Under the pieces are notes generated by a model, which was given only the letters and a program-made list of their open reading frames with translations, was not told where the DNA came from and made no database searches. The translations under genes and the position numbers were made by a program. A DNA stretch of 64,000 nucleotides, from positions 249,232 to 313,231 of the forward strand of contig JBJLBP010000001.1 of the NCBI GenBank assembly GCA_045568075.1, written 5' to 3'. Below, one piece after another: positions 26,501-56,723 of this stretch; positions within the stretch are counted from its first letter, which is position 1; the number at the start of each line of letters is the position of its first letter. Source of the DNA: Candidatus Thalassarchaeaceae archaeon. Its GTDB lineage: Archaea > Thermoplasmatota > Poseidoniia > Poseidoniales > Thalassarchaeaceae.

Positions 26501-29500
26501 ATTTATTGAATAATGATGTTGATCCCGATGACGATTGTGGCGCTCCCATTCCAGGAAATTTAAATCCTCAATGTATGGTGAATGACACAGCAGATTTGGA
26601 TGATGATTTCGACGGAGTCTACGATCATTGGGATGTCGACGACGATAACGATGGAATCTGGGATTATTTCGAAATCGACAGTAATGACGATCTCGACGAC
26701 GACGCCAATATCGATGCCTCGAATTTCTTTACCGGCACAAATTGTGATGACAATGACGACGATGGAACCGACACGGATCCAGACGACGACGGTTGGTACC
26801 AAGCCGTCTGGGACAAAGGTGTGTTAGGACAGGGACTCCTATTCCCTGTGTACTACGATGTCGACAATGATAACGACGGAGTCCCTGATGGAGAAGACCC
26901 GGATGACGATAACAATGGAGTTTCCGACGCATTACAAGAAACTCTTTGCTTCGTCGGTGAAGAACAGAGTGTTTGGGATCATGATAACGACGGTATCCTT
27001 GACTGGGCTGATGACGACTGGGACGCCGATGGATTGGTCAATACTCTTGAGTTGAATACAGCCACACCGTTCATCTCTCCATGGGATCATGATAACGACG
27101 GATTGAGAGATGACATCGATCTCGACGACGATTCGGACGGTATGCTGGATAAGGACGAGATTATGCTATGGCCATCTCGCTTCGGTCAGGAATCAACAAA
27201 CCCGTGGGACCACGACGATTACGGAAATGGAACAGGTCCCGCTAACCCCTCTGATCCATTCACCGGTCCGGACGCGATTGACGAGGATGATGACAACGAC
27301 GAGAGGCCCGATCGCGATTGGGACCATCTCGAAGAGGACTGGTCGAATTCCTCAGATTGGGATAGCGATAACGACGGAATCCTTGACGAGGATGACAAGG
27401 TGCCTACGAGAATCAATCTCACGAGCGCTAACGTCCTCTGGCTCGATGCTGTAAATCCAGCCGTTTTCCGTGGTACTGTGAACTGGCTCGACCCTGATAC
27501 AGGCGTCTTCGAGCCAGCTCCAGACCTGCCGGTTCAGATTTCTATCGAATGGGCTCGAAATGGCACCCTTGCCCTCGAGACCGTCGATGTTCTGACCGAT
27601 GCGGCTGGAGCTTTCGTAGTCGGACAATTCCTCTTGCCAGAGGATCTCATTGTAGGTCCTAACACGACTTACAATGTCTACGCGGAAGTCACAGAAATGT
27701 TCTATCACGACGGTTCACAGACCGAACCGATACCTGTAGAAGTTCGCGCCAATACATCGATTGACTACGTCGCATGGACATACTTCCGCAGCGATGAGCA
27801 ACCACTCTTCACAGATTACAAGGTGCATTATGAGGCTGATTGGGATCGAGGAATCTTCGACAATCGAATTCCTAACGCACCAGTCTCCTTCCGCGTTCAC
27901 GGCGGACCATTCGGCAACCACACCCACCCGACCATCTTCGATGGATACGGCTACGGTTACCGCGCCGATTCAGGTGGATGGGTCTCACTAACCTTCGTCC
28001 AAACCGCCGGCGCACAGGGTCAGTGGAAGCAGGTTCAGTGGAATTCAACCATGGATAATGGCGTTGGCAAGCTACCAGGCGGCTACGAAGAAATCGTCTG
28101 GGATGACAATGCGAAAGATCACTTCGTCCTCGGACGTTATGACTACACAAACACCAGTTTGCCGATTGGTGATTATGCATTCATTGGTTTCGCCCGCCCC
28201 GACTTGGGCGATGAATGGCCATTCCCATACCTTGAGCAGTCCGAGACAGAAGCGTTTGCTATCCGCTCGATGCACCGAATGTACATCGAAGCTGACATGT
28301 TTACGCCATCGACTCGGCCGGTTTACTTCTGGGACACCACACAGTTCACTGGATCGTCCTTCGGAGCGTGGAGGGCTCTCTTCCACCAACCAAGTCTTGA
28401 CACCGCTGGCCTCGCCTACGAAGACGTAAGCCTCGGCAAGCCGTATGCGATGACTTGGGATGGAACTCCTGAGGGACTAACTGGAGAGAGTTCCCGACTA
28501 CGTCCGTTCCTCTCTTCGAACGGAACTCATTGGCGTATCGGCATGCAGAACGGTGGCGACTTCAATGTGCCACCTTGCGGACCAGTCGACCCGGTTGATC
28601 CGAATAGTGACGTTCGCTGCGAGATTATCCCTGAGATGTTTACCGGAGAGACTCTGAGAGTCATCGGAAGCGTTTGGAATCGGACTTTGGTTCCATGGCC
28701 GCATGACCCGATGACGCTACAGGTCGATCTCGATCGTAATGGAATCTTCGCGGGCTCGCAAGAGACTGGATACGCTCGAGCACCACAGATGGTGAACGGT
28801 GTCGCGACTTTCGATTACAACTGGACCTGGTATTCTCAATATGCAGCAGGTCACTACGGAATACGTGCTGACTTCACCAACTCGAACTACTACTTCACAG
28901 GAAACCAGAGTTCGGTCCTCGCTCCTACGGGCGCTTACCTCAATGTCTCAGTCATTGGAACAACCGAGTTCAAGGAATTGCTTGAACCGCGCCTATATCG
29001 TGGCCAAAATCGCACAATCGAGGTTCAGTTGCTTGATAATTCGTTGCAGCCGCTGAAGAATTCTCAGATTAATTATGTTTGGAGTGCGGATGGCACCAAT
29101 GGCATCGCTGAGACTGACGGAACGGGTTGGTTCTCGGTCAATCTAACGATTGAGAAGGATCACAATCTGGGCAACTTCACCCTCTCTTACAACTACCCAG
29201 GTGATCCTCGCCACCAAGGAACCTCTGGAACGATGGATCTCTGGGTTGTCTCACGCACTTACATCACACTGCAAGGTACAACCCCGAACATACGCTCCAA
29301 TGGAGATATCTGGGAATTCTCAGCACAGGTGACAGATGACAATCGCACAGCCATCATCAAGGATTCCGGACAGGCTTTGGACGGATGTGGTGAGAATGGC
29401 GGAGAAGTTCTCCTGATTATGGAAGGAACCGACTTCGACGATCGAACCCATAGACAAATCGTCGAGACCCTATGTCCGAACGCAGGAAACATCCACCACG

Positions 29501-31509
29501 AGATGGTGTTGGATCCACAACTCCTGCGCGACGACCCGCAATCCTTCCTACCGGATGGATTCGGTCCAGTAAACGTCGTATTGCGCTTCGAGGAGAACCT
29601 ACCTCACGAGGGCTGTGAACCACTCGACGCAGATGCGATGAGCACTTCCGGCGCATGGGACCCATGCGCCCAGATGGTGAACAGCGATCACTTCCGCAGA
29701 GTCATGCAGTTCCAAGTCGATGGGTTCAGCCTCATCGGCCGAACAGTTCTCAACGTCGACGATCAGATTGTTTACACTTCTGAAATCGATCCATCGACCG
29801 GACAGCCAATCGAGAAGCCCATGGTCGTCACCGGCCAGCTCGTTGACGAACTCGGATCTAACCTCTCTAACCGCGCTGTGCGCGTAACATACGAGATGGT
29901 CGGCTCTGAGACGGGAATCGTGGGTTGTCTACCAGGAACCTCAAACATGGACGGATTCTTCGAGATCACCTGCCCGCTTTCCGGCGTTCAGGCGGGACAA
30001 GCCCGAGTGAAGGTCGAGTTCAATTCATACGAGAATAACGACCGCTACCGCTACCACAATGCAAGCGTAACACGACTGTTCCCGGTCTTCTCGAACTCGA
30101 CTATGCACCTGCAAGAAATTGGTCCGTTCCGAAATGACATCGATTCGTACACCTTCCAGAATGGCTCGGTTTTCCCGGTGCTGTATCTCAAGGAGTCATT
30201 CCACCTCGATGCTAGGTTAACTCAGACGAATGGTAATCCGATTGGCGGTAAGTGCCTGAACATCTACCTCGATCCTGAGGTTAACACTCGGCCAATCGCC
30301 ACTTCGATTACGCGTGACGGAACTGGTGAAATCGAGTGGTTCAGCGGTGACCCGGAAGACAATCCCAGTCGCCGAGGAGTCGAACCGACATCTGAGATGA
30401 TGGAAGGATTCAGAGTAGTTAGAATCGCATACGAACCGACTAAGGAATTACCTGGCGGATGTCGTGCCGAGACAACTCCGGTTGTCAATGGTTCCTTCAT
30501 CGATATCGAAGTCCTCGTCAGGAGCCGCGTTGACATCCTACTGAAGAACCACTGGTCAAATCCAGATGGATATCAGGAAGGAGATTGGATCAACGGATCG
30601 GTCGCAATTCTGCGCGACCGACTCGACCTCGCGGTCGAGCACCAAACGGTGATCTTCACCTACCAGTATTGGAATGCCGAGGAAGGCATGTGGCTTCCAC
30701 ACAACGTGGTCTACGCTACTACGAACGAATTGGGTGTGGCATCGTTTAGCTTCGAATACTCGGGTGAAAATATACCTGGAGAACTCGAATGTAGCCAGGC
30801 CGGTTATTGTATCGACGAAGGAAGATGGCAAGTCATAATCCACTTCAAGGGCTCACACGAGTTTGAAGAGGAATATCTCAACAATACGCCTGAAATCTAT
30901 CTTGGTGAATTAGTCGCGAAGGGCGATACGAGCTTCTTCACGGTGCAGGTATTGACGATTCTAGGAATCGCAATGGCCTTCGCTCTGATGGTCGGCGCAA
31001 TCATGTATCGCAATTACATTGAGCGCCGACGCATCGAGATTCTGCGCGGAATACTCACCGACTCGCTAATGTCGCTAAAGGCGTCGAACGAATACATCGA
31101 CACCATCTTCAACTGCTACAAGGAATTAGTACGATTCTTCCGCAGTCGAGGCGCGATGAAGAAGGTCTACGAGACCACGCGAGAATTCGAGGATGCTGTG
31201 AGCACAATGCTCAGCGGCATTGCGCCGCCAGAGGATCTCAATGTCTTCTTCTCACTCTTTGAAGAAGCAAGGTACTCTGACCACGAGATTGGTGCAGACC
31301 AGCGAGACCGAGCCATCGGTGCGCTGCAGTCCATCATCAACCACATCAGTGCCTCTTTGGGCGAAGGAATGCTAAACCGAACCACTGCTAATGAGTCCGG
31401 CCTTTACGGCTCAGTCATCAAGGCTGGCTCGTTCGTTGACTCCGAGGGTCAAGAGCGCATCGCCGGAATCGATGACGGTTCAGACGGCGACGGCGGCTTC
31501 CGAATCTGA
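23533..31509 (+). CDS. Giant (2658 aa) cell-surface protein: signal peptide, ~40 thrombospondin-type-3-like Ca-binding repeats (DxDxDGxxDxxD), embedded plastocyanin-like cupredoxin domain, large beta-rich region, C-terminal TM helix and ~170 aa cytoplasmic tail
   Basis: N-terminal hydrophobic signal. Dozens of DHDNDGI.D..D.DDDNDG repeats from ~23900-27400. Cupredoxin segment GDTVVWTNADSQDHTVTS...FSYVCNIHPAMTGTITV (His/Cys/His/Met). TM FTVQVLTILGIAMAFALMVGAIMY near 30930-31010. Tail with ...FEEARYSDHE... motif. Confidence 0.85.
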   Translation: MVGMNKEIQTWYGRENRKKSTSALMMVVLMLLSTQMYNFIGAEEAETSLEGPEETPARTAYQQFYQSGGASAGETQGQPASTADFQHPAFSDANWVDPASYQGKISDPSILLTDPGYGFHLEETNTEDHDNDGINDLDDLDDDNDGISDLIERFDGCYGTDPFDHDNDGIDDESDWDDDNDGILEGPIDYSQGSDPWNVSADRYVMPNVVHPWTGTPVGTGYRIDQNLMDHDNDGVTDEDIDGSGRGSYDEDDDNDARIDQFTWPCDFDGDGAQDYFDDDDDNDGVVDLWDSHPWDASITTNITATAPLWDDWYQWVSAETHDIEISPGNLFSPRALTINEGDTVVWTNADSQDHTVTSDIGLFDSGTIVPGASFTFTFDNAGTFSYVCNIHPAMTGTITVQSTSGSDNTYSEYIGGVDYVSMEANVWHPRNQSFTEVVDGDLDGDGIPNFLDPDNDNDGTPDSADTDDDNDGLLDMYDVDDDNDGIWDECMQLDTNSDGEGDYPNSFDIQTPGRDCEIDYDRDADDDRFRPIDMDYDLVWDWMDPDMGALELDELDNPNGAPRNDPDDEPYDLDNDGVLNEADPYMLATEEQVSEWDCATQTNPNPQNSDMNCTVARKSYTGNNDWDGDGLNNWEDRDDDNDGILDWLDIDPNCDFDDDNDLHLLNGSRFRDDGPNDIDTDVDGDGLANDEDWDDDNDGISDYYDPDDGNCGVVDQDQTDPFATYYGYSHGDGDIIDGSDDSDLWAQFENTHWKMWWHFNPFTEENGFIYPHNGYDDSTVPLTNGQIPEMYWYVLMHWSPWNGANYFDIDVDGDSLQNGIDVDSDGDGLPDWWDQDEGNDGVLDVNDPGQGGSFDNNECGYTFWWLLIAQQAIEQACGLPYAWLYGYPVIPASRTNGMSFTIPYSSRPDADMDQGAYNGTNSQGQWTCETQCWHFDFLGQGDAGPSAAVNYNQMKDNRDLYTAWVGITFGFFQWTADSNANLFPDEVADLLNNDVDPDDDCGAPIPGNLNPQCMVNDTADLDDDFDGVYDHWDVDDDNDGIWDYFEIDSNDDLDDDANIDASNFFTGTNCDDNDDDGTDTDPDDDGWYQAVWDKGVLGQGLLFPVYYDVDNDNDGVPDGEDPDDDNNGVSDALQETLCFVGEEQSVWDHDNDGILDWADDDWDADGLVNTLELNTATPFISPWDHDNDGLRDDIDLDDDSDGMLDKDEIMLWPSRFGQESTNPWDHDDYGNGTGPANPSDPFTGPDAIDEDDDNDERPDRDWDHLEEDWSNSSDWDSDNDGILDEDDKVPTRINLTSANVLWLDAVNPAVFRGTVNWLDPDTGVFEPAPDLPVQISIEWARNGTLALETVDVLTDAAGAFVVGQFLLPEDLIVGPNTTYNVYAEVTEMFYHDGSQTEPIPVEVRANTSIDYVAWTYFRSDEQPLFTDYKVHYEADWDRGIFDNRIPNAPVSFRVHGGPFGNHTHPTIFDGYGYGYRADSGGWVSLTFVQTAGAQGQWKQVQWNSTMDNGVGKLPGGYEEIVWDDNAKDHFVLGRYDYTNTSLPIGDYAFIGFARPDLGDEWPFPYLEQSETEAFAIRSMHRMYIEADMFTPSTRPVYFWDTTQFTGSSFGAWRALFHQPSLDTAGLAYEDVSLGKPYAMTWDGTPEGLTGESSRLRPFLSSNGTHWRIGMQNGGDFNVPPCGPVDPVDPNSDVRCEIIPEMFTGETLRVIGSVWNRTLVPWPHDPMTLQVDLDRNGIFAGSQETGYARAPQMVNGVATFDYNWTWYSQYAAGHYGIRADFTNSNYYFTGNQSSVLAPTGAYLNVSVIGTTEFKELLEPRLYRGQNRTIEVQLLDNSLQPLKNSQINYVWSADGTNGIAETDGTGWFSVNLTIEKDHNLGNFTLSYNYPGDPRHQGTSGTMDLWVVSRTYITLQGTTPNIRSNGDIWEFSAQVTDDNRTAIIKDSGQALDGCGENGGEVLLIMEGTDFDDRTHRQIVETLCPNAGNIHHEMVLDPQLLRDDPQSFLPDGFGPVNVVLRFEENLPHEGCEPLDADAMSTSGAWDPCAQMVNSDHFRRVMQFQVDGFSLIGRTVLNVDDQIVYTSEIDPSTGQPIEKPMVVTGQLVDELGSNLSNRAVRVTYEMVGSETGIVGCLPGTSNMDGFFEITCPLSGVQAGQARVKVEFNSYENNDRYRYHNASVTRLFPVFSNSTMHLQEIGPFRNDIDSYTFQNGSVFPVLYLKESFHLDARLTQTNGNPIGGKCLNIYLDPEVNTRPIATSITRDGTGEIEWFSGDPEDNPSRRGVEPTSEMMEGFRVVRIAYEPTKELPGGCRAETTPVVNGSFIDIEVLVRSRVDILLKNHWSNPDGYQEGDWINGSVAILRDRLDLAVEHQTVIFTYQYWNAEEGMWLPHNVVYATTNELGVASFSFEYSGENIPGELECSQAGYCIDEGRWQVIIHFKGSHEFEEEYLNNTPEIYLGELVAKGDTSFFTVQVLTILGIAMAFALMVGAIMYRNYIERRRIEILRGILTDSLMSLKASNEYIDTIFNCYKELVRFFRSRGAMKKVYETTREFEDAVSTMLSGIAPPEDLNVFFSLFEEARYSDHEIGADQRDRAIGALQSIINHISASLGEGMLNRTTANESGLYGSVIKAGSFVDSEGQERIAGIDDGSDGDGGFRI
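23900..27400 (+). repeat. Low-complexity coding repeat region (GAYAAYGAYGG = DNDG units) inside the giant gene
   Basis: Recurrent gat-aac-gat-gg / gac-gac-gat-aac-gac-gg units seen many times. Confidence 0.7.
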
Positions 31510-33374: not shown

Positions 33375-35543
33375 ATGGTCCCGGAGGGCTCGGATGATTG
33401 GGCGAACAGCGCCCGGATTGAGGAGCTGGCAGGACTCCTCGCACACCATTCTAACCTCTACTACAATGAGGCCGCTCCAGAGATTCCCGACGCCGAATAT
33501 GACTTACTCTTCGACGAATTGAAGCAACTATCACCCGATCACCCACAACTAACCAAGGTAGGTTCGGACCCCGCACCAGGATCTGTGAAGGTTGACCACT
33601 TGTTCCCAATGCGCAGTCTCGATAAGGCAACTGAGGCCGAGGAAGTCATCCATTTTGTTGCAGAAACCACTGCTCACGGCCGCCGCTTTGTCTGCCAACC
33701 CAAACTCGACGGTTCAGCCCTATCGCTGGAATACCGTCGAGGCCGTCTAGTCCGTGCGGCCACGCGCGGAAATGGTGAGCGTGGCGAAGATGTCACAGCA
33801 AACGCTCGCCGAATCTCAAACATTCCAGAACAACTTGCTTGGGATGGTGATGCCCACGTACGAGGAGAAGTGGTGATGCCACTCGATATTTTCCGCTCGA
33901 AATACGCAAACATCGCCCCAAATCCGCGCAATCTCGCATCCGGCAGCTTACGGCAGAAGAGTGCCGATGCCGGCAAAGGAGACGCAGCTGACCTCGTATT
34001 CCACGCCTATGATGTGATGTTCCCCGAACTTGCCGACCGACACCCTGACAGCCCCTCTCCACCAGATTTCACCTTCGACTCGCAAGAGATCGATTGGTTG
34101 GTTGCAAACGGTATCGAAGTGGCTGGCAACGATGTGGTCGAAGGCGATGACGATGAGGCCGTTACAAATGGAATTCTCGATGTCACTCAGCGCTGGACTG
34201 AGCACCGAGAAAACGCCTCGTGGGAGATCGACGGAGTCGTCATCAAACTAGATGACCTTGCAAAGCGAAGTCTCCTCGGCCAGACCGCACATCATCCTCG
34301 ATGGGCACTAGCGTGGAAATTCCCTCCCGAGGAGGCATCGACAGTTCTGCTAGGAGTCGATTGGCAGACAGGTCGGACCGGCACGGTCACCCCTGTGGCG
34401 AGAGTCGCACCGGTAACAGTCTCCGGCGTAACTGTCGAAAACACGACACTGCACAACGCCGGAGAGATTGAAAGATTGGGAATCAGCATCGGCGACAGAG
34501 TCCGAATTGTCCGTAGAGGCGATGTGATTCCCAAAATAATCGAGGTTCTCGGGCCCGCAGACCAAACTGACCTCGACAATAGATTCCGTGCGGATGGTAC
34601 TGCCTTCAGCGACCCGCTACCGCTACGCCAAGCCGTCCCAATTCCTCACGAATGCCCACGATGTGGCACACAACTGAAGCAGGACGGTGCCTTCATCCGC
34701 TGCTTCAACCTTGATTGCCCATCGCGCCTAGAGCGTGCAATTCTCTACTGGTGTCGAGCGCTTGAGATGGACGGCATCGGAGAGAAACTCGCAGAACAAC
34801 TCTGTGAGGAAGGCCTCGTCAAGAGCTTGCCCGATCTCTACGCACTGACTCACTCAGATCTCGTAGGCCTCGAGCGCATGGGTGAGAAATCAGCAGCCAA
34901 TGTCGTCACTCAACTAGATTCAACCCGCTCGCTCAACCTCTCATCCTTCCTCTCAGCCCTAGGATTGCCTGGAATAGGCCCAGAATTAGCAAGTGCCTTC
35001 GCACGTGAAGTAGGAGAAGCAACCACTCTGTTTGACTTGTTAGCCGAACCGGAGGAAGCCATCCCACGACTGGTCACAATCGATGGCGTAGGAGAAACAG
35101 TAGCACGCTCATTCCTCGAAGGCTTAGATGAACGCAAGAGCGTCGTCGAAGGATTGGTGGACGTCCTCCTAATCGAAGCAGAACAAGTGATCGAAGAGGC
35201 GGACGGCCCTCTCACTGGTCAGACATTCTGTATCACAGGCACCCTAGGCCGTCCGCGAAAAGAAATCGCTCTGATGATCAAAGCAGCAGGAGGGAAAGTT
35301 GTCTCAACAGTCTCTGGCAAGCTCGACCACCTCGTCGCCGGAAACTCGGCTGGCTCCAAGTTGGACAAGGCGAATAGGCTCTCAGTCAACGTCCTCAGCG
35401 AAATTGACCTTGAAGCCATGCTCGCCGGCGAATCAACTCTAGACGATGGAAGCGTCGACGAAGCGGAAGGAGAAATTGTCGCCGACGCCGGCCCACAGCA
35501 GATGTCCCTCGGCGACTACGGTTCGTCGGAACCAGTAGAATAG
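33375..35543 (+). CDS. ligA: NAD+-dependent DNA ligase (LigA/LigN type) with C-terminal BRCT
   Basis: KxDG adenylation motif (CQPKLDGSALSL), Zn-finger Cys (CPRCGTQL...C...C), HhH region and BRCT (FCITGTLGRPRKEI). Confidence 0.9.
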   Translation: MVPEGSDDWANSARIEELAGLLAHHSNLYYNEAAPEIPDAEYDLLFDELKQLSPDHPQLTKVGSDPAPGSVKVDHLFPMRSLDKATEAEEVIHFVAETTAHGRRFVCQPKLDGSALSLEYRRGRLVRAATRGNGERGEDVTANARRISNIPEQLAWDGDAHVRGEVVMPLDIFRSKYANIAPNPRNLASGSLRQKSADAGKGDAADLVFHAYDVMFPELADRHPDSPSPPDFTFDSQEIDWLVANGIEVAGNDVVEGDDDEAVTNGILDVTQRWTEHRENASWEIDGVVIKLDDLAKRSLLGQTAHHPRWALAWKFPPEEASTVLLGVDWQTGRTGTVTPVARVAPVTVSGVTVENTTLHNAGEIERLGISIGDRVRIVRRGDVIPKIIEVLGPADQTDLDNRFRADGTAFSDPLPLRQAVPIPHECPRCGTQLKQDGAFIRCFNLDCPSRLERAILYWCRALEMDGIGEKLAEQLCEEGLVKSLPDLYALTHSDLVGLERMGEKSAANVVTQLDSTRSLNLSSFLSALGLPGIGPELASAFAREVGEATTLFDLLAEPEEAIPRLVTIDGVGETVARSFLEGLDERKSVVEGLVDVLLIEAEQVIEEADGPLTGQTFCITGTLGRPRKEIALMIKAAGGKVVSTVSGKLDHLVAGNSAGSKLDKANRLSVNVLSEIDLEAMLAGESTLDDGSVDEAEGEIVADAGPQQMSLGDYGSSEPVE

Positions 35544-48115: not shown

Positions 48116-48274
48116 GTTGTTTGTTTTAAAAATCCCCTTAATGTGTAATAAACACCCGCAGTACCCCACTTTTTGGTATCGAAGACTTCCTGTTCCCAAA
48201 CCCCTGAAAACGGTGTGTTTAGAATCAAAATAGCGAACTTCTATAACAAATACGGAATGTGGTAGGCTGCACTA

Positions 48275-51200
48275 ATGAGCGTGAGATACACCATGTTAGA
48301 CAAGAAAATGATTGCAATGCTGATGACTCTCAGTATGCTTGCGGCTGCGTTCGCAGGCTGTCTGGGTGGGGAAGATGAGGACGATGACTGGACTCTGATG
48401 CCAGCTGACGATGTGTCGGCTGACTTCGTGACTTCAGACTGGGACCCAATCATCCCCAATTTGAACGACGGCGAGATGTGCGATGCCATTATCTCGGCGA
48501 TGACGAAGACGGAGGAGCGCGACCAAGTCGTCGACTTCACTCGTGGTTACTACACAAGTAGCCAGGGTGTAATCGGTGCGGCTGGATCCGCAGCTATCTC
48601 GGACGTCTCGGACCTGAATGCGGCTGGTACAACCGTCGCTGTTCAATCCGGAACGACCTCTGACCTCTATGCCCAAGACAATCTTGCGGCCGCGACAATT
48701 GTTGCGTACGGAGATTTCCCCTCGGTCATAGCGGCAGTCGGAAACGGTGAGGCGGACTACGCCATGGGTGATTCACCTGTGCTCGCGCTGTCTGGCGACC
48801 TGATGACGACTTTCTCAGATGAGACCTTCGGACTCGCAGTCCGTGAGGACTCGGGCGAATTGCTCGATGCCCTCAATGTCGCAATCACTGCGATTGTTGA
48901 CTCTGGCGAGTACGATGCCATCTTTGGCGCTTGGTTCGACGGAGCTGTCGTCCTCACGGATGACCGCAATGACGACACCGCGACCTCGTACCCAACCCCA
49001 AGTGAGGGTTCAACCCTCTCTGCGGTTCTCGAGTCCGGTTCGCTCATGTTGTGCTCTGACACTGCTTACCCGCCGTTCGAGAGCCTCGATGAGGACGGTA
49101 ACGCTGTTGGATTCGACGTTGACGTCGCAAACGCGCTTGTCGATGAGATCGCTGCTCACTACATGGGTAACGATAACCCAGTATTCGTAGCTCCAGTATC
49201 AGAATCAATGAAGATTGGTATGCTAAACCCAATGACTGGTCCAATCGCAGTCTATGCACCTCCGTTCACGGTGTCTGCACAGATGGCAATTGACGACCTC
49301 AATGCAATGGGCGGAAACTTCGAGCTTGTAGAGGCTGACTCGGGCTGTGACGGTACTGTCGCAGCAACAGCAGCACAGGCTCTTGTCGACGCTGGTGTTG
49401 TAGGTGTCGCTGGTGCAGCATGTTCCGGTGCTTCAATGGGTGCTAACGCAGTACTCAGTGCAGCAGGAGTTGTACAGGTGTCATACGCAAGTACTAACCC
49501 TGGTCTTTCTGACTCTGCTGCTTACCCACACTTCTACCGTGTGGTTCCAAGCGATGCAATTCAGGGACCCGCCATGTCTGACATGGTGGGCGCTACTGGC
49601 GCGGCCAACCCGGCTCTGCTGCACATGACCAACGACTACGGTTCTGGTCTAGCAGACGCCTTCGCGGACGCTTGGGGTGGGGAGGAATTCCTTTGCACCA
49701 AGATCGGATACGCGGATGACCAAACAGACTTCGCAGCAGAAGTACAGGCCATCGCCGACGCTGGTTGCGACTCGGTGGTCATGGTGACTTACTCTGCAGA
49801 TGGTGCTGCTATCCTTGAGACAATGGCCTACCTCGGCCTAGCTCTGCCAACTTTCGGCGCTGACGGAATTGCAGACGGAGCCTTCTTGGAAGACTTTTCA
49901 GCCCCTGCTGCTGCTAACGGTGTCCAAGCTACTAAGCCTCGAGCAGGCTCTAGTGCTGGAGACTTCGTAGAGCGCTGTGCTGCAGATGCAGACTGTGCTG
50001 GTGGTATCTACACTGCTGAGACATACGACGCAGTAATGATGATTGGAAAGGCCGCTATGATGGAAGACGGCGCTAACATGCCCACACACATGGGAATGGT
50101 CGGCACTGACTACCAAGGAGCATCAGGAGTACACACTTTCGATGCTGCAGGCGACGTCGCAGGTGCAGGTTACGATATTTGCAGCTTCGATGCGCTATCA
50201 AGCACAGATGTCTTCTTCAGCTGCCGAGCTTACTGGACCCGTGACGGTGGAGTCGCTGCAAGCGAGTTCACTGGCGCGACCGTCAAGGTTGGTTTCCTTA
50301 ACCCAATGACAGGTCCAATTGCTGTCTACGCACCGGGCTTCGGAGTTGCGGCAAACGTCGCTCTTGGAATGATGAACATCGCAGGCTGGGGATCCGGCCT
50401 ACAGTTCGAAATGGTCATGGCCGATTCAGGCTGTGATGGAACTGCAGCAGCTGCTGCAGCCCAGACTCTAGTAGATGCTGGAGTTATTGGTGTAGTTGGA
50501 GCAGCATGTTCTGGTGCTACAATGGCCGCTAACGCTGTTCTCAGCGCAGCCGGAATCCCAATGATCTCGTACGCAAGTACTAACCCAGGTCTAAGTGATG
50601 CAACAGCATATCCACACTTCTTCCGTGTGGTTCCAAGCGATGCGATTCAGGGCCCTGCTCTAGCTGATGTAGTCACTGCAGGTGGCTCCAGCAACATCGC
50701 ACTTCTGCACATGACCAACGACTACGGTTCAGGTCTTGCAGATTCGTTCGACGCTGCTTGGACGGATGCAGGTAACACACTCTGCACCAAGATAGGCTAT
50801 GCTGACACCGATACCGACTTTACCTCTCAGGTTCAGTCAGTTGTCGATGGTGGCTGTGACAGTGTAATGTTGATTTCGTACGCTGCAGATGGTGCTGCAA
50901 TCGTTGAGGAGTTATCTGCTCAAGGATTCGCTGGTGCAATCTACGGTGGAGATGGAGTTGCTGAAGAGGGACTTTGTGCCTCTATGGCAGACAACTCAAT
51001 CTGTGACGGAATAGTTGCTACCAAGCCAGCATCTGCTACACCTAACGAGCGCTCGATGGCTTTCGCCGCAATTTGTGGCGATATTCCAGACTGTGCTGGT
51101 GGTATCTACACCGCTGAGGCATTCGATGCTATGATCATCATGGGATACGCGTACTTCGCAGGCGCATCTGCACCTGCTGGTACCTCAATGACCCAGTTGA

Positions 51201-51373
51201 TTGCAGCAACAGGCCAAGGCTTCGTTGGTGCTAGTGGTGTCCACAGCTTCGATGCTGCTGGAGATGTAGCCGGTAACGGATACTGCGTCGGTACGTTCAA
51301 CGTCGACGCGGGCGCTGTGTCGTTCGACTGCGACCGATTCTGGTCGCGCGACGCCGGCGTGCAAAACGCGTGA
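48275..51373 (+). CDS. Fused multi-domain ABC-transporter substrate-binding lipoprotein: N-terminal type-2 PBP-like domain + two tandem LivJ/LivK-like (type-1 PBP) domains
   Basis: Lipobox LAAAFAGC. Two paralogous blocks (MKIGMLNPMTGPIAVYAPPF...ADSGCDG...GAACSGASM...YASTNPGLSD...YPHFYRVVPSDAIQGPA, then VKVGFLNPMTGPIAVYAPGF...ADSGCDG...GAACSGATM...YASTNPGLSD...YPHFFRVVPSDAIQGPA). Confidence 0.8.
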   Translation: MSVRYTMLDKKMIAMLMTLSMLAAAFAGCLGGEDEDDDWTLMPADDVSADFVTSDWDPIIPNLNDGEMCDAIISAMTKTEERDQVVDFTRGYYTSSQGVIGAAGSAAISDVSDLNAAGTTVAVQSGTTSDLYAQDNLAAATIVAYGDFPSVIAAVGNGEADYAMGDSPVLALSGDLMTTFSDETFGLAVREDSGELLDALNVAITAIVDSGEYDAIFGAWFDGAVVLTDDRNDDTATSYPTPSEGSTLSAVLESGSLMLCSDTAYPPFESLDEDGNAVGFDVDVANALVDEIAAHYMGNDNPVFVAPVSESMKIGMLNPMTGPIAVYAPPFTVSAQMAIDDLNAMGGNFELVEADSGCDGTVAATAAQALVDAGVVGVAGAACSGASMGANAVLSAAGVVQVSYASTNPGLSDSAAYPHFYRVVPSDAIQGPAMSDMVGATGAANPALLHMTNDYGSGLADAFADAWGGEEFLCTKIGYADDQTDFAAEVQAIADAGCDSVVMVTYSADGAAILETMAYLGLALPTFGADGIADGAFLEDFSAPAAANGVQATKPRAGSSAGDFVERCAADADCAGGIYTAETYDAVMMIGKAAMMEDGANMPTHMGMVGTDYQGASGVHTFDAAGDVAGAGYDICSFDALSSTDVFFSCRAYWTRDGGVAASEFTGATVKVGFLNPMTGPIAVYAPGFGVAANVALGMMNIAGWGSGLQFEMVMADSGCDGTAAAAAAQTLVDAGVIGVVGAACSGATMAANAVLSAAGIPMISYASTNPGLSDATAYPHFFRVVPSDAIQGPALADVVTAGGSSNIALLHMTNDYGSGLADSFDAAWTDAGNTLCTKIGYADTDTDFTSQVQSVVDGGCDSVMLISYAADGAAIVEELSAQGFAGAIYGGDGVAEEGLCASMADNSICDGIVATKPASATPNERSMAFAAICGDIPDCAGGIYTAEAFDAMIIMGYAYFAGASAPAGTSMTQLIAATGQGFVGASGVHSFDAAGDVAGNGYCVGTFNVDAGAVSFDCDRFWSRDAGVQNA

Positions 51374-51491
51374 ACTCGTAGAGAACACGCACTGGGAACG
51401 TAAAGCTCCCCAGCGGGAAATACCCGCTGGGGGGCCCCCCTAACCCCCTTTTTGAAACTGCAGAGTTGAAACTGAATTCTAATTCCCAACG

Positions 51492-54400
51492 GTGTGCCAG
51501 ATGATGGAATCTGCCAGATCCGCTTGGAATTCCCTCCCTCGTGGCCAGCGACGCCTGATCATCTCACTGGCAATAATGGTCGATGCCTGGGTCGGTCTTC
51601 GCTACGGTTTCGGCTCGCTTAATCTCCTTGACAAGATTCTGAGTGGCGGTATTCCGAATGACATGGTTTGGCTCCTTCAGATTGTCATCGCAATTTCGGG
51701 CGGATTTATGCTCATCAAGATCCTCTTCGACGATGTCCCCGAACATCCCATCCGCTCGATAGGAATCGCTTGTTCACCTCTCTTTCTTCTCTTCATAGTC
51801 TACTTGACTCTAGATATCCTGTTCAAAGGAATGTCTGATGATGCAATCATCACTCTCGATTTGATTTCTATCAGTGTCGGCACACTGACATGGTCAACGA
51901 CTTATCTGGCGATAGCAGTCGGCCTGACGTTGACATACAAGGTCCAGCGATACGGAAATTTCGCACAATCTGAATTCTTCATGATTGGGATGTATCTGTC
52001 CATGGTTATGGTCTGGGTTGACCAATTCTACCCATTAGCCTCAGCACCACGTGATGGCGTTCTGGTCTGGTCATTGCTGCTATGGACTATCATCGGTGCC
52101 TTCGTTCTCACAGGAATCGCTGGAATCGTCATCGACCGTTTGGTCTACCGTGGTTTCCGCCAGAAAAACGCCTCACCTCAAGTGATGATGATTGCCTCAC
52201 TCGGTATCGCTCTAATCCTTCGCGCCTTGGTCTACTTACGATTCGGCGCGGGAAAGAAAATGTTCGAACCAGACGCTGATTGGCGAGTCCCGTCCCTTCG
52301 TTGGGACATTCCCACTACCAAGTTGCGATTTTACCTTGGAGATCGCAGCATCGATGAGGGTTCTACGTACACTCTGAATTCCTGCGATGCTGAGGGCGGA
52401 GAACGAATAGTCGTCGAAGGTAGCAAACCGCTCTTTGAGACATATGATTTGGCGACCAATTGTGTCGATCAAGCGACGACCGGCTATGCTTACTACAAGG
52501 GAGCAATGCCGGCCGTGATTTTCATCTCGGTGATTCTACTTCTGATTCTCCTGAACAAGACAAGGCTCGGTCGCCGCATGCGTGCTGTGGCCGACAACCC
52601 CGACCTAGCCGCCTCTAGCGGCATTAACGTCGAGAACGTGCAGATGACTAGCGCTTTCCTTTCGGCTGGCCTCTCGGGTATGGGTGGAGCTATCTTTGCG
52701 ATGACGCTGCGCTTCACACCAGAGACCGCTTTCAGTCTACTTCTCCCCTCATTCGCCGTCATTGTCCTCGGTACGATAGGATCGATTCCTGGTGCTATCA
52801 TTGGCTCGCTCATCGTCGGTTTCGTCCGAGCCCTCTCATCTCCTGTCCTAATTGGAATAGGACAACCCCTTGGGCGTTCAAATTACACAGCTCTCGACGG
52901 TGTCATGCCCTACATCTTCCTCATCGCCATTCTGATGATTATGCCCGAGGGAATTGGCGATGCCTATGAGAAATGGAAGGTCAACCGACTTCGCAAACGC
53001 GCGGAACAGGTTTCGGCGCCTAGCAAGAAGACCGGCGCGGTCTTGGCCTTCCTTCCAACTGGAATGTTCGGATTGCATAATATGCAGCAGCGCAAGGAGT
53101 CTCGCGGGCAATCGATGATGATTGCAAGCGTAGGGGCCTATGTCTTCCATCGAATCTCAAATTTCATTGGGGCTAATTCCTTCTCTGAAGGTGCTTGCTC
53201 TCAAACCTGCCAGGATAACGAAGGTGTCTCCTCTAACCTCGAATTAGTCACAGGTAGAAGTGATGGAACTCTTGTTATCACCGACTCCCCATTTACAGAG
53301 GCTAATATTGACTCACCACCGAGCGATGTTGCACCTTATCTGCATGAGAGTTGGGCTGCAGAGCATCTCCAATCCATGAATGAGAAATGGTATGATCTGA
53401 TGTCCGGAGAAATGATGCTTCTCGATATCATTTCAACGCTCGGCGATATCATTTGGCCAGCTCTGCCTCTACTCGTATGGCTTGTCGCAATTGTCGAAGG
53501 CGTTTACTTGCTACAAGGCCGCGATGACGACCCTCTCCGCCCAATCATCTCGAAGTTCGAAGACGCTACTTCATCCACAGGCACCGGCTTCTCGGGACTC
53601 ACGATTTCAATGAAGCAATTAGGGACTCACCTTGATTCAATTCCGAAGAAAGTTGGCCCCATAATCGACTCCCTGACTGATAATTTACGTCGCCCCTTCT
53701 CGCGTGGAGAAGTCGATAGAAGTGGAGGAGATCACTTGGCTATTTATGGGCGCGAGAGTCCGAAGGGTTCGTGGATAATGTTCGGTGTTTTTATGTTCAT
53801 TCTTCTCCTATTCTTGGCTTGGCTTCCGGTTGCTGAGCAAGATGGAATGCGCTTCATCAAGGTGCTTCAGGTATCGAATGTACTTGTCACACTCTCAATA
53901 TTTGCCTTGATGGCTTTCTCTCTTAACTTACACACGGGTGTGACAGGAATGGTCAATTTCGGTGTGATTTTCTTTGTAGGAATTGGGTCGATTGTCGTCG
54001 GTATCCTCAGTGCTCCATCGGAACTCCATGGATACGACTGGCCGGTTATTCCCGCGACGATTGTAGCGATTTTGGTAGCGGCGCTGGCGGGATGGATGCT
54101 AGCTTATCCGACAGCCCGTCTTCGAATGGATTACTTCGCAATCGTTACGATTTCGCTTGGCGAGATTGTCAGGGTTCTGCTAGCCGGAGAACCCCTACTT
54201 CGGGCTGGATCGTGGGGTTCCTCAATCGGAATCTCACGCTACACTCTACCTGGTGAATCATGGTGGTTCTGCGGCTCGGATGTGCCGAATAAGGCACCTC
54301 TTGCTGGCCTTGATGCGACACTTGGCACTGCTGATGATATCATTCAGAGGATGGAACCGTCAGATTGCCGCGAAGCGGTCGATTTGTCGAGTCCCGCGGT

Positions 54401-55217
54401 ATCTATTGGTGACTTGATGAATCTCGGTGAGCCGGCGCCTTACATGCTGCTACTCGCAGTCATTGGCATCCTCAGTACCATCTTCGTCTGGTGGTTGCTT
54501 GACACTATACTCGCCTCTCCATGGGGTCGCATTCTGCGCGCTATCCGTGAGGATGAAGAGGTCGCGCAGCACCATGGTCACGACGTTCTCACGCACAAGG
54601 CGGCGAGCCTAGCGCTTGGCGCGGCAATTGCTGGCTTTGCCGGTGCGCTTTGGGCTTGGAAGCTGACAGGATTCCAGCCCAATCACATGATGCCAGCCAG
54701 GTCGACATTCCTCGTCTGGGCAGCATTCATCGTTGGTGGCGCTGCCAATAATCGAGGCATGGTTGTCGGTGCTTTCATCATCGTCTTGATGGAATTCGTC
54801 TTCAACGTCCTCGTCGCTGGCCAAGGATCTTCAGACCTGCCATTGCACACTACGGCGGGACATATCGATAGTCTGTTTGAATGGCTAGTAGTTGACTCGT
54901 GGGAGGTAGTCAACATCTTCCTCGTGCTCGCTCTGCTAGGTTGGCTCACGAATAGAGCCGGACTACGCGAAGTCGGTTTTGCCGGCGCAGTCACATTTAC
55001 TTTCACTGGCTTGATGATGGGTCAGCGATCCATCGATGAAACATTCTCCGGCGGATTACAAGCCGATATGGCCTATGTCAAGGTCCTTCTCATTGGCTTC
55101 CTAATCCTCTTCTCTCTCAAGTTCAACCCGAAGGGTCTGTTGCCAGAGGTTCCGAGCCGCCCGGATCGCCCACAAGCGGCAGAAGCGGGCGGCGAAGGAG
55201 GTGATTCAAGTGAGTGA
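51492..55217 (+). CDS. Fused LivH-LivM-type branched-chain amino acid ABC permease (1241 aa) with large extracytoplasmic/loop insertions
   Basis: N-terminal half LivH-like (ADNPDLAASSGINV...), C-terminal half LivM-like. Many TM segments. Extra non-TM inserts at ~52250-52470 and ~53150-53760. Confidence 0.75.
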   Translation: MCQMMESARSAWNSLPRGQRRLIISLAIMVDAWVGLRYGFGSLNLLDKILSGGIPNDMVWLLQIVIAISGGFMLIKILFDDVPEHPIRSIGIACSPLFLLFIVYLTLDILFKGMSDDAIITLDLISISVGTLTWSTTYLAIAVGLTLTYKVQRYGNFAQSEFFMIGMYLSMVMVWVDQFYPLASAPRDGVLVWSLLLWTIIGAFVLTGIAGIVIDRLVYRGFRQKNASPQVMMIASLGIALILRALVYLRFGAGKKMFEPDADWRVPSLRWDIPTTKLRFYLGDRSIDEGSTYTLNSCDAEGGERIVVEGSKPLFETYDLATNCVDQATTGYAYYKGAMPAVIFISVILLLILLNKTRLGRRMRAVADNPDLAASSGINVENVQMTSAFLSAGLSGMGGAIFAMTLRFTPETAFSLLLPSFAVIVLGTIGSIPGAIIGSLIVGFVRALSSPVLIGIGQPLGRSNYTALDGVMPYIFLIAILMIMPEGIGDAYEKWKVNRLRKRAEQVSAPSKKTGAVLAFLPTGMFGLHNMQQRKESRGQSMMIASVGAYVFHRISNFIGANSFSEGACSQTCQDNEGVSSNLELVTGRSDGTLVITDSPFTEANIDSPPSDVAPYLHESWAAEHLQSMNEKWYDLMSGEMMLLDIISTLGDIIWPALPLLVWLVAIVEGVYLLQGRDDDPLRPIISKFEDATSSTGTGFSGLTISMKQLGTHLDSIPKKVGPIIDSLTDNLRRPFSRGEVDRSGGDHLAIYGRESPKGSWIMFGVFMFILLLFLAWLPVAEQDGMRFIKVLQVSNVLVTLSIFALMAFSLNLHTGVTGMVNFGVIFFVGIGSIVVGILSAPSELHGYDWPVIPATIVAILVAALAGWMLAYPTARLRMDYFAIVTISLGEIVRVLLAGEPLLRAGSWGSSIGISRYTLPGESWWFCGSDVPNKAPLAGLDATLGTADDIIQRMEPSDCREAVDLSSPAVSIGDLMNLGEPAPYMLLLAVIGILSTIFVWWLLDTILASPWGRILRAIREDEEVAQHHGHDVLTHKAASLALGAAIAGFAGALWAWKLTGFQPNHMMPARSTFLVWAAFIVGGAANNRGMVVGAFIIVLMEFVFNVLVAGQGSSDLPLHTTAGHIDSLFEWLVVDSWEVVNIFLVLALLGWLTNRAGLREVGFAGAVTFTFTGLMMGQRSIDETFSGGLQADMAYVKVLLIGFLILFSLKFNPKGLLPEVPSRPDRPQAAEAGGEGGDSSE

Positions 55218-56010
55218 ACCAGTGCTCAAAGTCGAGAATCTAAGAAAGGAATTCGGCGGACTCGTCGCTGTCAAGGATGTCTCGTTTGAGGTCGGACCGG
55301 GTGAGTTCGTTGGATTGATTGGGCCAAATGGATGTGGTAAATCGACGACATTCAATTGCATCAGTGGGCTGCTTCAGCAGACTTCTGGCAAGGTTGCTGT
55401 CTTCGGCGAGGACGCCTCGGAGATGCGCCCTGACGAAATCCAGAACTTGGGCTTCACTCGCACGTTCCAACATACACGTTTGTGGCGGCAAATGACAGTG
55501 ATTGAGAATCTGTTAGTGCCACCACGTCAGCAATTCCAACCGCAACCTCTCAAAGCGATTCTTTGGCCATTCACGCGACCCGCTGAGGAGGCTCGTTTGG
55601 CTCGCGCCTACGAGGTTCTCGACCAGCTTGAGGTTCCTCATATGGCTCATAACCTCGCGAGCGAGCTTTCTGGCGGCCAGTCGAAACTCGTTGATATCGG
55701 CCGCTCGATGATGGGCGACCCGCAGCTCTTACTGCTTGACGAACCGGTTGCTGGGGTCGCCGGCCCTCTCGCTCTCAAGATTTTCAATAATCTGCGAAAG
55801 ATTGTCGATGAGACTGGAATTTCAGTCCTGATTATCGAACACAATATGGATTTCATCCTACGTCAAGGAGTCGACCGAATCGTCGTCATGAAAGAGGGGG
55901 AAATTCTCATGGTCGGCACTCCGGACGAGGTTCGAAGCAATCGTGCGGTTATCGAAGCGTATCTCGGAGCGGTAGGCGATGAATCGGAAGAAGGAGGTGA
56001 AGAAGAATGA
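55201..56010 (+). CDS. livG: Branched-chain amino acid ABC transporter ATP-binding protein LivG-like
   Basis: Walker A GPNGCGKST, signature LSGGQSKLVDIGRS, Walker B LLLLDEP. Confidence 0.9.
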   Translation: MIQVSEPVLKVENLRKEFGGLVAVKDVSFEVGPGEFVGLIGPNGCGKSTTFNCISGLLQQTSGKVAVFGEDASEMRPDEIQNLGFTRTFQHTRLWRQMTVIENLLVPPRQQFQPQPLKAILWPFTRPAEEARLARAYEVLDQLEVPHMAHNLASELSGGQSKLVDIGRSMMGDPQLLLLDEPVAGVAGPLALKIFNNLRKIVDETGISVLIIEHNMDFILRQGVDRIVVMKEGEILMVGTPDEVRSNRAVIEAYLGAVGDESEEGGEEE

Positions 56011-56723
56011 GCGAACGCATTCTCGAGGTCAAGGGCCTCAACGGTGGATACGGCTCTGTGCAGATTCTCTACGATATCGACCTCTACGTCGACAAGGGTG
56101 AATTCGTAACTATCATCGGTCCCAACGGCTGTGGTAAATCGACTCTCATCAAGACGATTTTCGGCATCGCAACGCATTACTCAGGCTCTGTGGTCCACAA
56201 CGGCGACGAGGTTTCTGGATGGCGAACTGACCAATTGGTCAATCGCGGAATTGCCTACGTCCCTCAAGTCAACAACGTCTTCCCTTCACTGACTGTGCAC
56301 GAAAATTTGCAGATGGGTGGCAATAAATTGCCTACCAAGTTGCTGAATGAAAGAATCGAGCGCGCACTGAATATGTTCCCTGATTTGCGCGATCGTACTC
56401 ACGATCTTGCAGCTTCTCTTTCGGGTGGTGAGCGCCAGATGTTAGCTATTTCTCGGGCGCTCATATCCAACCCGACCTTCTTGTTACTGGATGAGCCTAC
56501 TGCTGCTCTTTCTCCGCTTTATCAGCAGCAGATTATCGAGCGCATCGATTCGCTGCGCTCGGAGGGAATTACTGTGCTGATAGTGGAGCAGAACGCACGG
56601 TTGAGTTTGGCTCGCTCAGATCGAGGTTACATCTTGGCGAGCGGAAAGGTAGTCCACACCAGCGATGCTCAGCACATTCTGACCGACCCTGAAATCGGCG
56701 AGTATTTCCTCGGATCTCATTGA
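56007..56723 (+). CDS. livF: Branched-chain amino acid ABC transporter ATP-binding protein LivF-like
   Basis: Walker A GPNGCGKST, LSGGERQMLAISRAL, LLLDEP. Confidence 0.9.
   Translation: MSERILEVKGLNGGYGSVQILYDIDLYVDKGEFVTIIGPNGCGKSTLIKTIFGIATHYSGSVVHNGDEVSGWRTDQLVNRGIAYVPQVNNVFPSLTVHENLQMGGNKLPTKLLNERIERALNMFPDLRDRTHDLAASLSGGERQMLAISRALISNPTFLLLDEPTAALSPLYQQQIIERIDSLRSEGITVLIVEQNARLSLARSDRGYILASGKVVHTSDAQHILTDPEIGEYFLGSH

Follow-up and report, generated by a model that had tools for sequence, protein, structure and literature searches.

How is an amino-acid importer of the Liv type built in an archaeal cell that has no periplasm? The question is raised by a four-gene operon at bases 48275-56723 (+ strand) of a 64,000-nt stretch of DNA, referred to here as the window, whose source is a Marine Group II (MGII) archaeon of the Poseidoniales/Thalassarchaeaceae. 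Its tightly packed, co-oriented genes, defined from open reading frames (ORFs) and their translations, encode a substrate-binding receptor, a permease and two ATPases. Few uncultured microbes of the surface ocean are as abundant as MGII archaea, and the way the receptor works matters for the question of which organisms consume the dissolved amino acids of seawater. Public annotation lists the proteins as 'branched-chain amino acid ABC transporter substrate-binding protein' and 'ABC transporter permease', names in which the unusual parts are invisible. These parts are a three-module receptor whose first module is a type-II binding domain that is circularly permuted at the profile level, a LivH-LivM permease fused into one chain, and a covarying RNA hairpin between the two genes. 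The operon very probably encodes an amino-acid importer fed by its LivJ-like modules. The wider account, of a high-affinity MGII importer on the plan of the hydrophobic amino acid transporter (HAAT) family, re-engineered for a cell without a periplasm, is one that we consider probable on balance.

The four genes are as follows.

48275-51373, + strand: receptor gene, encoding a three-module substrate-binding protein (SBP) and lipoprotein of 1032 aa (ORF, Pfam).
51501-55217, + strand: fused LivH-LivM permease gene, 1238 aa when counted from the ATG; its ORF begins at GTG 51492 and has 1241 codons.
55201-56010, + strand: LivG-like ATPase gene, 269 aa, with ABC_tran and BCA_ABC_TP_C; best NCBIfam match LivG, E 3.4e-65.
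56007-56723, + strand: LivF-like ATPase gene, 238 aa, with ABC_tran; best NCBIfam match LivF, E 1.3e-62.

The receptor stop and the permease ATG are 127 nt apart, so that the two are separate genes with a structured spacer between them, whereas the LivG-like gene shares its first 17 nt with the 3' end of the permease gene and the LivF-like gene overlaps the LivG stop by 4 nt. Permease homologues of 1237-1238 aa place the real start at ATG 51501, three codons inside the GTG-initiated frame. The 1241-aa fused permease reported by the first-pass annotation, which was made from the sequence letters alone, is a true fusion, of slightly smaller size. A TATA-like TATAACAAA lies 24-32 nt 5' of the receptor ATG (window 48240-48275), a position that points to an archaeal transcript with a short leader or none.

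Pfam and NCBIfam assign all parts to a Liv-type ABC importer, in agreement with the initial assignment, and the families proposed for domain parsing (SBP_bac_3, Peripla_BP_6 and BPD_transp_2) were all matched. The receptor scores 93.3 bits with SBP_bac_3 (cut-off 26.4) and, in two stretches each, 226 bits with Peripla_BP_6 and 208 bits with ANF_receptor; the permease contains two BPD_transp_2 stretches (248 bits). Among NCBIfam models, the receptor reaches 206 bits against LivJ/K and 25 bits against UrtA, while the permease matches UrtB and LivH best in its N-terminal half and LivM in its C-terminal half. Because both ATPases score below the NCBIfam equivalog cut-offs, they are family members rather than orthologues of Escherichia coli LivG and LivF. 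Judged by every criterion that can be applied to sequence, the four-gene set is a member of the HAAT family (TC 3.A.1.4), and it is the conservation of pocket residues that points to transport of hydrophobic or neutral L-amino acids.

The receptor comprises a membrane anchor and three binding modules.

48275-48361, + strand: signal peptide and lipobox FAGC (Cys29), read from the sequence and followed by an acidic linker of ~17 aa.
48413-48940, + strand: body of the permuted type-II (class F, polar amino acid) domain, aa 47-222, covering SBP_bac_3 positions 38-131 of 132.
49046-49153, + strand: displaced N-terminal beta-beta-alpha of the type-II domain, aa 258-293, covering SBP_bac_3 positions 2-37.
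49208-50260, + strand: type-I LivJ-like module A, aa 312-662 (Peripla_BP_6/ANF_receptor), pLDDT mostly 80-95.
50276-51370, + strand: type-I LivJ-like module B, aa 668-1032, 55% identical to module A, pLDDT mostly 80-95.

The type-II domain is the most unusual part. Its match to the SBP_bac_3 profile is non-colinear, the first ~37 positions following the rest of the domain, and the canonical order of class-F secondary-structure elements is not encountered. Just 17 acidic residues separate the lipobox Cys from aa 47, so the N-terminus cannot supply the missing strand-strand-helix. A re-permuted construct, in contrast, is colinear with AncCDT-1 (5t0w), residues 13-61 and then 62-245, and matches solved class-F proteins with E values of 1e-28 to 1e-30, the best being the GlnPQ SBD1-2 tandem (6h30, E 4e-30). 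At the profile level the domain is circularly permuted and, by its topology, not a canonical member of the class-F family. The first-pass annotation had listed an extra type-2 periplasmic-binding-protein (PBP)-like domain ahead of the paralogous modules; such a domain is present, its permutation having been overlooked. AlphaFold models the displaced piece as strand-strand-helix with modest confidence. One representative, P0271, is a fragment with type-II domains in tandem, and the permuted module aligns colinearly with it over the junction of the repeats. This fits an origin by duplication followed by loss of the outer ends, the route by which permutations usually arise. The permuted domain would most likely have arisen from a tandem type-II pair, copy 1 losing its first strand-helix and copy 2 its body.

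Conservation was assessed in 62 receptor sequences (61 species genomes and the window) and in a corresponding set of 61 permease sequences. The displaced piece bears the pocket motif D262-x-x-Y265-P-P-F268-E269, invariant in the receptor set and with a Tyr that in class-F proteins lines the binding pocket, and S74, T77, R82, T127, T128 and D166 are invariant or nearly so; the Arg that holds the alpha-carboxylate (R82) and the Asp that holds the alpha-amino group (D166) in the class-F clamp are thus both kept. With a mean identity of 76%, against 66% and 62% for the two LivJ-like modules, the permuted module is the most conserved of the three. The N-terminus of the receptor, a protein that is very acidic overall (D+E 12.9%, K+R 2.3%), consists of KK, a hydrophobic stretch and the lipobox [FL]-A-G-C29, a motif invariant throughout the set and indicative of probable lipid modification at Cys29. 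One orthologue (P0112, locus L001, 9001-12132) carries a Cys-rich GCTDxxAxNYNxxAxxDDGSCTY between lipobox and permuted domain, a segment that the window protein lacks.

Modules A and B are 55% identical over 362 residues (E 8e-126), the 60-70% originally quoted applying to their best blocks only, and are joined by a linker of only ~5 residues. The best solved relatives of module A by sequence are LivK (1usg) and LivJ (1z15), with E about 1e-23 to 1e-22. A Foldseek search with the whole receptor model returned LivK TM1135 (3td9, TM-score 0.82) and a Leu-bound SBP (4n0q, 0.81), the tool not stating which module lies behind the alignment; each solved match has a single binding module of the LivJ/LivK kind. 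In the AlphaFold model both type-I modules take the form of intact LivJ/LivK folds, in keeping with their earlier description as paralogous PBP blocks of one lipoprotein preceded by a polar-amino-acid-type domain. Pocket positions were read from a HMMER alignment of module A with LivK and carried to module B by the A-B alignment.

LivJ/K pocket position 18: Y327 in module A, Y685 in module B.
Position 77: A382 in module A, A744 in module B.
Position 78: C383 in module A, C745 in module B.
Position 79: S384 in module A, S746 in module B.
Positions 100-102: A405-S406-T407 in module A, A767-S768-T769 in module B.
Position 150: Y455 in module A, Y817 in module B.
Position 202: Y506 in module A, Y869 in module B.
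Position 226: D530 in module A, D893 in module B (Asp replaces Glu).
Position 276: Y579 in module A, Y945 in module B.

The two modules share the same residue at all 11 canonical positions, and these residues are near-invariant in the 62 sequences; the only exchanges are Y/F, along with a few L, and they fall at positions 18 and 276. On this basis both modules resemble functional binders of alpha-amino acids whose pockets are much alike. Since the canonical ligand-contact residues are near-invariant in all three modules, three intact binding sites are plausible, as had been suggested from the sequence at first reading. The multi-substrate capture proposed alongside finds no support in the LivJ-like pair, whose 11 pocket residues are the same; any broadening of the substrate range would have to come from the type-II module.

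The permease is likewise more elaborate than its annotation implies. The parts below are taken from an AlphaFold model (pTM 0.78, mean pLDDT 76.7) whose numbering starts at residue 15 of the 1238-aa protein.

51546-51833, + strand: N-terminal extension of ~100 aa with three long helices (model 2-21, 39-64 and 78-97), preceding the LivH core.
Model 107-466: LivH core, interrupted by an insert at 235-316.
52245-52490, + strand: beta-rich LivH insert of ~82 aa with a Cys pair (strands within model 253-316).
52941-53846, + strand: linker of ~300 aa between the two halves, delimited by AlphaFold secondary structure.
Model 470-488: Lys/Arg-rich amphipathic helix of the linker.
Model 495-544: helical hairpin of the linker.
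53175-53444, + strand (model 545-634): CxxxC segment of the linker, ~90 aa, predicted to be extracellular, running on as a 60-residue helix into the membrane.
Model 659-739: variable helical segment of the linker, ~80 aa, modelled with low confidence and predicted to be cytoplasmic.
Model 740-760: last membrane helix of the linker.
Model 769-1194: LivM core, containing a second core insert at 883-966.
54189-54440, + strand (model 883-966): LivM insert of ~84 aa with a Cys pair, modelled as low-confidence coil and short helices.

Soluble inserts of ~70 and ~200 aa had been proposed at first reading. Extra parts do exist, and they are more numerous: an extension of ~100 aa with three helices, three predicted extracellular segments of ~80-90 aa and a variable, putatively cytoplasmic segment of ~80 aa, accompanied by extra transmembrane helices. 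Permease homologues are 1209-1402 aa long (one has 1602 aa), and BPD_transp_2 is the sole Pfam family in all of them. The N-terminal extension is present in 60/60 complete orthologues with a mean identity of 52%. The variable linker segment, by comparison, has a mean identity of 21%, ranges from 72 to 137 aa across orthologues and in some of them contains two further hydrophobic helices.

Six of the seven cysteines form three pairs, one in each segment predicted to lie outside, and the seventh is not conserved. C281 and C307 of the LivH insert, which is 80-212 aa long among orthologues, are kept in 60-61/61 sequences; C552 and C556 of the linker are kept in 60/61, as are C910 and C942 of the LivM insert, which occupies the loop equivalent to the LivH insertion site. 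This pattern of conservation fits extracellular disulfides. Both core inserts lie in the loop ahead of the helix that runs into the (cytoplasmic) coupling helices. Following the modelled helices from the positively charged N-terminus, and taking the broken helix 495-515 not to span the membrane, would put the CxxxC segment and both core inserts on the outer side. The N-terminal extension and the linker have no credible Pfam match, a sequence search of solved structures gave no permease match at E<=0.01, and Foldseek with the permease model found nothing significant, its weak matches being to membrane subunits of type II importers, FhuB first. The longest LivH inserts, of up to 212 aa (82 in the window), occur in permeases of ~1400 codons stop-to-stop (L006, L039, L044, L045, L053 and L059). 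The resemblance of the linker hairpin motif G-L-H-x-x-x-x-R to TM2-type domains is an impression only.

The spacer between receptor and permease genes contains a conserved RNA element.

51398-51435, + strand: conserved intergenic RNA element, just after the receptor stop and between the receptor and permease genes.
51398-51406, + strand: ACGUAAAGC motif flanking the hairpin and preceding the stem.
51405-51417 pairing with 51423-51435, + strand: G+C-rich stem of 13 bp with loop AAAUA.
51449-51453, + strand: TTTTT run 3' of the hairpin in the genome of the window.

Folding of the 130-nt region that holds the hairpin gave a z-score of -3.4, and the arrangement was found in 63/63 receptor-permease spacers examined. 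In a 61-sequence alignment, 98.1% of cells are paired and 11/13 pairs have changed on both sides (128 cells), a strong covariation that 0/500 shuffles reach; shifting the partner reduces pairing to 33-55%. In 953 kb, a covariance model hit the + strand exactly once per locus and in every case within the receptor-permease spacer, including in five loci left out of model building. No Rfam family came near its gathering score on the intergenic region. A dispersed repeat was considered and rejected: ACGTAAAGC is not enriched in the window, where it occurs once without mismatch and 13 times with a single mismatch (7.5 expected).

In bacteria, the intergenic REP hairpins of malE-malF and hisJ-hisQ protect the upstream mRNA and raise the ratio of binding protein to permease. 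By analogy with these spacer hairpins, the archaeal hairpin would most likely set a high receptor-to-permease ratio, either by stabilising or by ending the upstream transcript. Such a role in raising receptor mRNA would fit the high transcription of 'livK' in Thalassarchaeaceae (PMC9723583).

The distribution of these features was examined in a scan of one genome per prokaryotic species, which found 203 species-representative genomes with a relative. The best 80, at 49-96% identity, are described here; almost all are titled Poseidoniales, MGII, Thalassarchaeaceae or with broader archaeal names, and one contig is titled 'bacterium'. Complete receptors with permuted type-II domain, module A and module B in this order occur in 61 species genomes, single-cell genomes included, and 60 complete single-ORF permeases (1219-1402 codons stop-to-stop) lie directly downstream. 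The architecture is thus present in at least 60 Poseidoniales species genomes, mostly Thalassarchaeaceae. A protein search returned 762 receptor homologues at E<=1e-10, of which the best 120 all have 1015-1085 aa and contain SBP_bac_3, ANF_receptor and Peripla_BP_6; those with names belong to Candidatus Poseidoniales, Thalassarchaeaceae or Marine Group II. Operon synteny is conserved in the four loci examined, which derive from two orthologues. In one locus (L001, 16151-17176) the LivG-like ATPase is called with 341 aa, against 269 in the window, reflecting a terminal extension or another start call.

These data also bear on the reading that the fusions are artefacts of assembly, frameshift or gene calling. 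A few metagenome-assembled genomes do have receptor or permease split into two ORFs (L002, L004, L021, L069, L012 and L078), as is expected of draft assemblies. Intact ORFs in independent species genomes exclude such errors as the source of the fusions, hundreds of further full-length, near-identical copies stand on separate metagenomic contigs, and the junctions between fused parts are conserved in sequence, so that this reading is refuted and carries next to no weight. The fusions are lineage-wide, a comparison that the first-pass annotation had itself proposed. Two of its other suggestions need correction: the niche is the marine water column and not a hypersaline one, and SBPs with tandem type-I modules are not rare in metagenomic sequence space, since dozens of the 150 best 50%-identity representatives have 2, 3 or 5 type-I modules. 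The full-length arrangement of three modules was seen only in the lineage of the query and in one further 50%-identity cluster (P0242), and a variant with the permuted type-II domain and one type-I module also exists (P0241). Other clusters combine a canonical-order type-II domain with one type-I module (P0373, with one member named Chloroflexota) or, with members named Poseidoniaceae (MGIIa), carry tandem type-I modules (P0281, 874 aa). The tandem proteins of Candidatus Poseidoniaceae (P0281/P0541, 861-874 aa) are ~34% identical to the query and have an N-terminal region of ~130 aa and no type-II domain; in the literature, 'livK' is described as absent from MGIIa. Among distant representatives, P0277, P0282, P0300 and P0318 (2496-3927 aa) contain 5-10 partial ANF_receptor-like repeats.

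Taken together, the operon suggests the following mechanism. Binding proteins of a cell without a periplasm must be tethered, and the lipid-anchored receptor would be a chain of three Venus-flytrap modules, each with an apparently intact alpha-amino-acid site. The LivJ-like modules would load L-amino acids and dock on LivH-LivM, where the LivG/LivF heterodimer would drive import. The one-chain translocator guarantees a 1:1 stoichiometry of the two permease halves, and its three Cys-pair inserts are obvious candidates for a larger surface outside the cell on which a receptor of three times the usual size could dock or be guided. Chaining of modules would mainly raise the number of binding sites beside one translocator, and a second class of substrate may be added by the type-II module, whose type is that for polar or cationic amino acids. 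By analogy with GlnPQ, the only tandem system that is well studied, modules A and B are expected to act largely independently and to compete for docking, although their short linker would allow a rigid pseudo-dimer.

Several observations weigh against this account. AlphaFold, working from a 27-sequence alignment, gave a pLDDT <50 over most of residues 43-245, so for the permuted domain the fold is inferred from homology. The LivH half scores higher with the UrtB model (111 bits) than with the LivH model (82 bits), and sequence and fold searches found no solved LivHM-type membrane domain to anchor the topology. The two LivJ-like pockets look identical, which leaves dosage as the only evident gain from having both. 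The T-run after the hairpin is present in some genomes and absent from most, and the hairpin is therefore not a uniform terminator. Binding domains of the type-II class, moreover, normally serve BPD_transp_1 permeases; Pfam found none in the operon or among its neighbours, all membrane domains there being BPD_transp_2, so that delivery to LivH-LivM is without precedent. We regard delivery by the type-II module to the same permease as doubtful, and still more improbable the specific version in which one HAAT translocator takes cargo from two classes of binding module, the permuted type-II domain docking on the disulfide-braced inserts in an orientation set by the permutation. If true, it would break the rule that matches binding-protein class to permease class. 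The converse, that the type-II domain does not feed LivH-LivM and is instead a tethered capture or retention antenna, a sensor acting on the transporter, or a partner in trans of an Aap-type polar amino acid transporter (PAAT), leaving only the two LivJ-like modules to feed the permease, is a serious possibility that we nevertheless hold to be somewhat unlikely. In every system characterised so far, binding proteins dock on permeases according to class; the type-II module is the one nearest the lipid anchor, and Thalassarchaeaceae have a highly transcribed aapJ system elsewhere (PMC9723583; PMC6336850). Yet this module is the most conserved of the receptor and forms part of the chain in each of the 61 complete receptors, which suggests that its role belongs with the operon, and the three lineage-specific, predicted extracellular inserts could provide a new docking surface.

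The LivJ-like pair might also form one rigid pseudo-dimer, comparable to the type-I domain dimer of class C receptors, with one effective delivery site at which one module docks while the other regulates or stabilises. Their ~5-residue linker, across which the modelled strands are near-continuous, and the pTM of 0.57 of the receptor model, which hints at a defined relative orientation, are compatible with such an arrangement, as are the identical pockets and the frequent dimerisation of ANF_receptor-type domains. We find it rather unlikely, because A and B keep every ligand-contacting residue across 51-96% sequence divergence, so that both probably bind, and because the tandem domains of GlnPQ behave independently (PMC8025302). 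A cargo other than free amino acids, such as urea or short amides (Urt/Fmd-like) or aromatic and other organic acids, could be read from the preference of the LivH half for UrtB and from LivJ-family fold matches that include a 3-hydroxybenzoate complex (4q6w) and a pyroglutamate protein (8wch). The far better score of the receptor with LivJ/K than with UrtA, the best matches of the ATPases to LivG and LivF, the retention in A and B of S79, T102, Y202 and an acid at 226, which hold the alpha-amino and alpha-carboxylate groups, and the Arg and Asp clamp for alpha-amino acids in the type-II module make it highly unlikely. An amino-acid importer fed by LivJ-like modules remains the preferred reading.

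The surroundings of the operon are archaeal housekeeping genes by Pfam: PAC2, MoaA, Trm1 and PurM-like genes upstream, and a PCC-domain protein, MCM and GatE downstream. The PurM-like gene was compared with the receptor and is unrelated. Elsewhere in the window, several loci deserve mention.

4412-6760, + strand: 782-aa protein that combines four fasciclin domains with a plastocyanin/azurin-type copper domain at its C-terminus; it may have a connection with the 'halocyanin' gene whose transcription is reported to be high in Thalassarchaeaceae (PMC9723583).
8311-13598, + strand: fatty-acid beta-oxidation cluster with an 806-aa fusion of 3-hydroxyacyl-CoA dehydrogenase and enoyl-CoA hydratase, an acyl-CoA dehydrogenase of 600 aa and an alpha/beta hydrolase.
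15567-18950, - strand: ORF of 1127 aa without a Pfam match at E<=1e-5.
23533-31509, + strand: giant ORF of 2658 aa.
33375-35543, + strand: NAD-dependent DNA ligase of the bacterial LigA type, comprising OB, HhH and BRCT domains and encoded here by an archaeon.

Earlier work on these archaea had detected MGII amino-acid transporters in Atlantic metaproteomes (PMC5776962) and found 'livK' to be one of the most strongly transcribed genes of Thalassarchaeaceae (PMC9723583), which also carry and highly transcribe a separate Aap-type (aapJ) system (PMC9723583; PMC6336850). The 'livK' of the metatranscriptomic work is most likely the receptor described here. In the literature searched, MGII studies speak of 'livK', and no description was found of the permutation, the mixed-class chain, the fused LivHM, the permease inserts or the hairpin; a limited search likewise found no published natural circular permutant of the class-F family. 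The permutation, the mixed-class chain, the permease inserts and the hairpin appear to be new, whereas the HAAT family is known and the genes are public under generic names. The operon thus offers three natural experiments of a kind usually engineered, namely a permuted Venus-flytrap domain, a mixed type-II/type-I chain and a single-chain LivH-LivM with predicted extracellular domains.

Among characterized systems, E. coli LivJ/LivK-LivHMGF is the closest in plan, sharing type-I modules with the same pocket residues, LivH- and LivM-like BPD_transp_2 domains, LivG (with BCA_ABC_TP_C) and LivF, and gene order. It differs in that its binding proteins are free and single-module, whereas the MGII receptor is a lipoprotein combining two LivJ-like modules with a type-II domain, and in that LivH and LivM are separate chains. 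The three N-terminal helices, the ~300-aa linker and the three Cys-pair inserts of the MGII permease are absent from the E. coli profiles. A fused permease recalls FhuB, a membrane subunit that consists of two fused halves and was the best, though weak, fold match (E. coli ferrichrome FhuCDB, 7lb8_B; E 0.2, probability 0.87); FhuB belongs to the type II importer family, shows no significant similarity and has no comparable inserts.

With respect to binding domains, GlnPQ of Lactococcus lactis (SBD1-SBD2) also places several per chain beside one translocator. Its tandem domains are largely independent and compete for docking (PMC8025302), and a high local density of sites and docking competition are expected in both systems. 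In GlnPQ, both domains are type II with canonical topology, joined by flexible linkers of 14-19 aa and fused to a homodimeric PAAT-type permease. The MGII receptor instead mixes type-II and type-I modules, with ~5 residues between A and B, and is a separate lipoprotein serving a HAAT permease; as its binding domains are not fused to the membrane domain, the importer is not of the GlnPQ type. The type-II module is clearly homologous to HisJ, LAO, GlnH, ArtJ and AncCDT-1, sharing the T-x-x-R Arg, the G-D-x-P Asp, the T-T pair and the Tyr of D-x-x-Y-P-P-F-E, yet unlike these proteins it has the strand-strand-helix after the rest of the domain and no cognate BPD_transp_1 permease in its operon. 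Metagenomic multi-module binding proteins (2x, 3x and 5x type-I, P0281 and P0373) chain the same building blocks at 25-35% identity, which indicates that chaining recurs and is not peculiar to the query lineage; where they include a type-II domain, as in P0373 and P0386, its order is canonical, unlike that of the receptor.

The hairpin, finally, resembles bacterial REP elements in being a stable stem-loop directly after the binding-protein gene and before the permease genes. It differs from them in that it is archaeal, occurs once per locus rather than dispersed, has its own ACGUAAAGC flank and matches no Rfam family. It is a candidate archaeal counterpart of the bacterial mRNA elements that set binding-protein-to-permease ratios.

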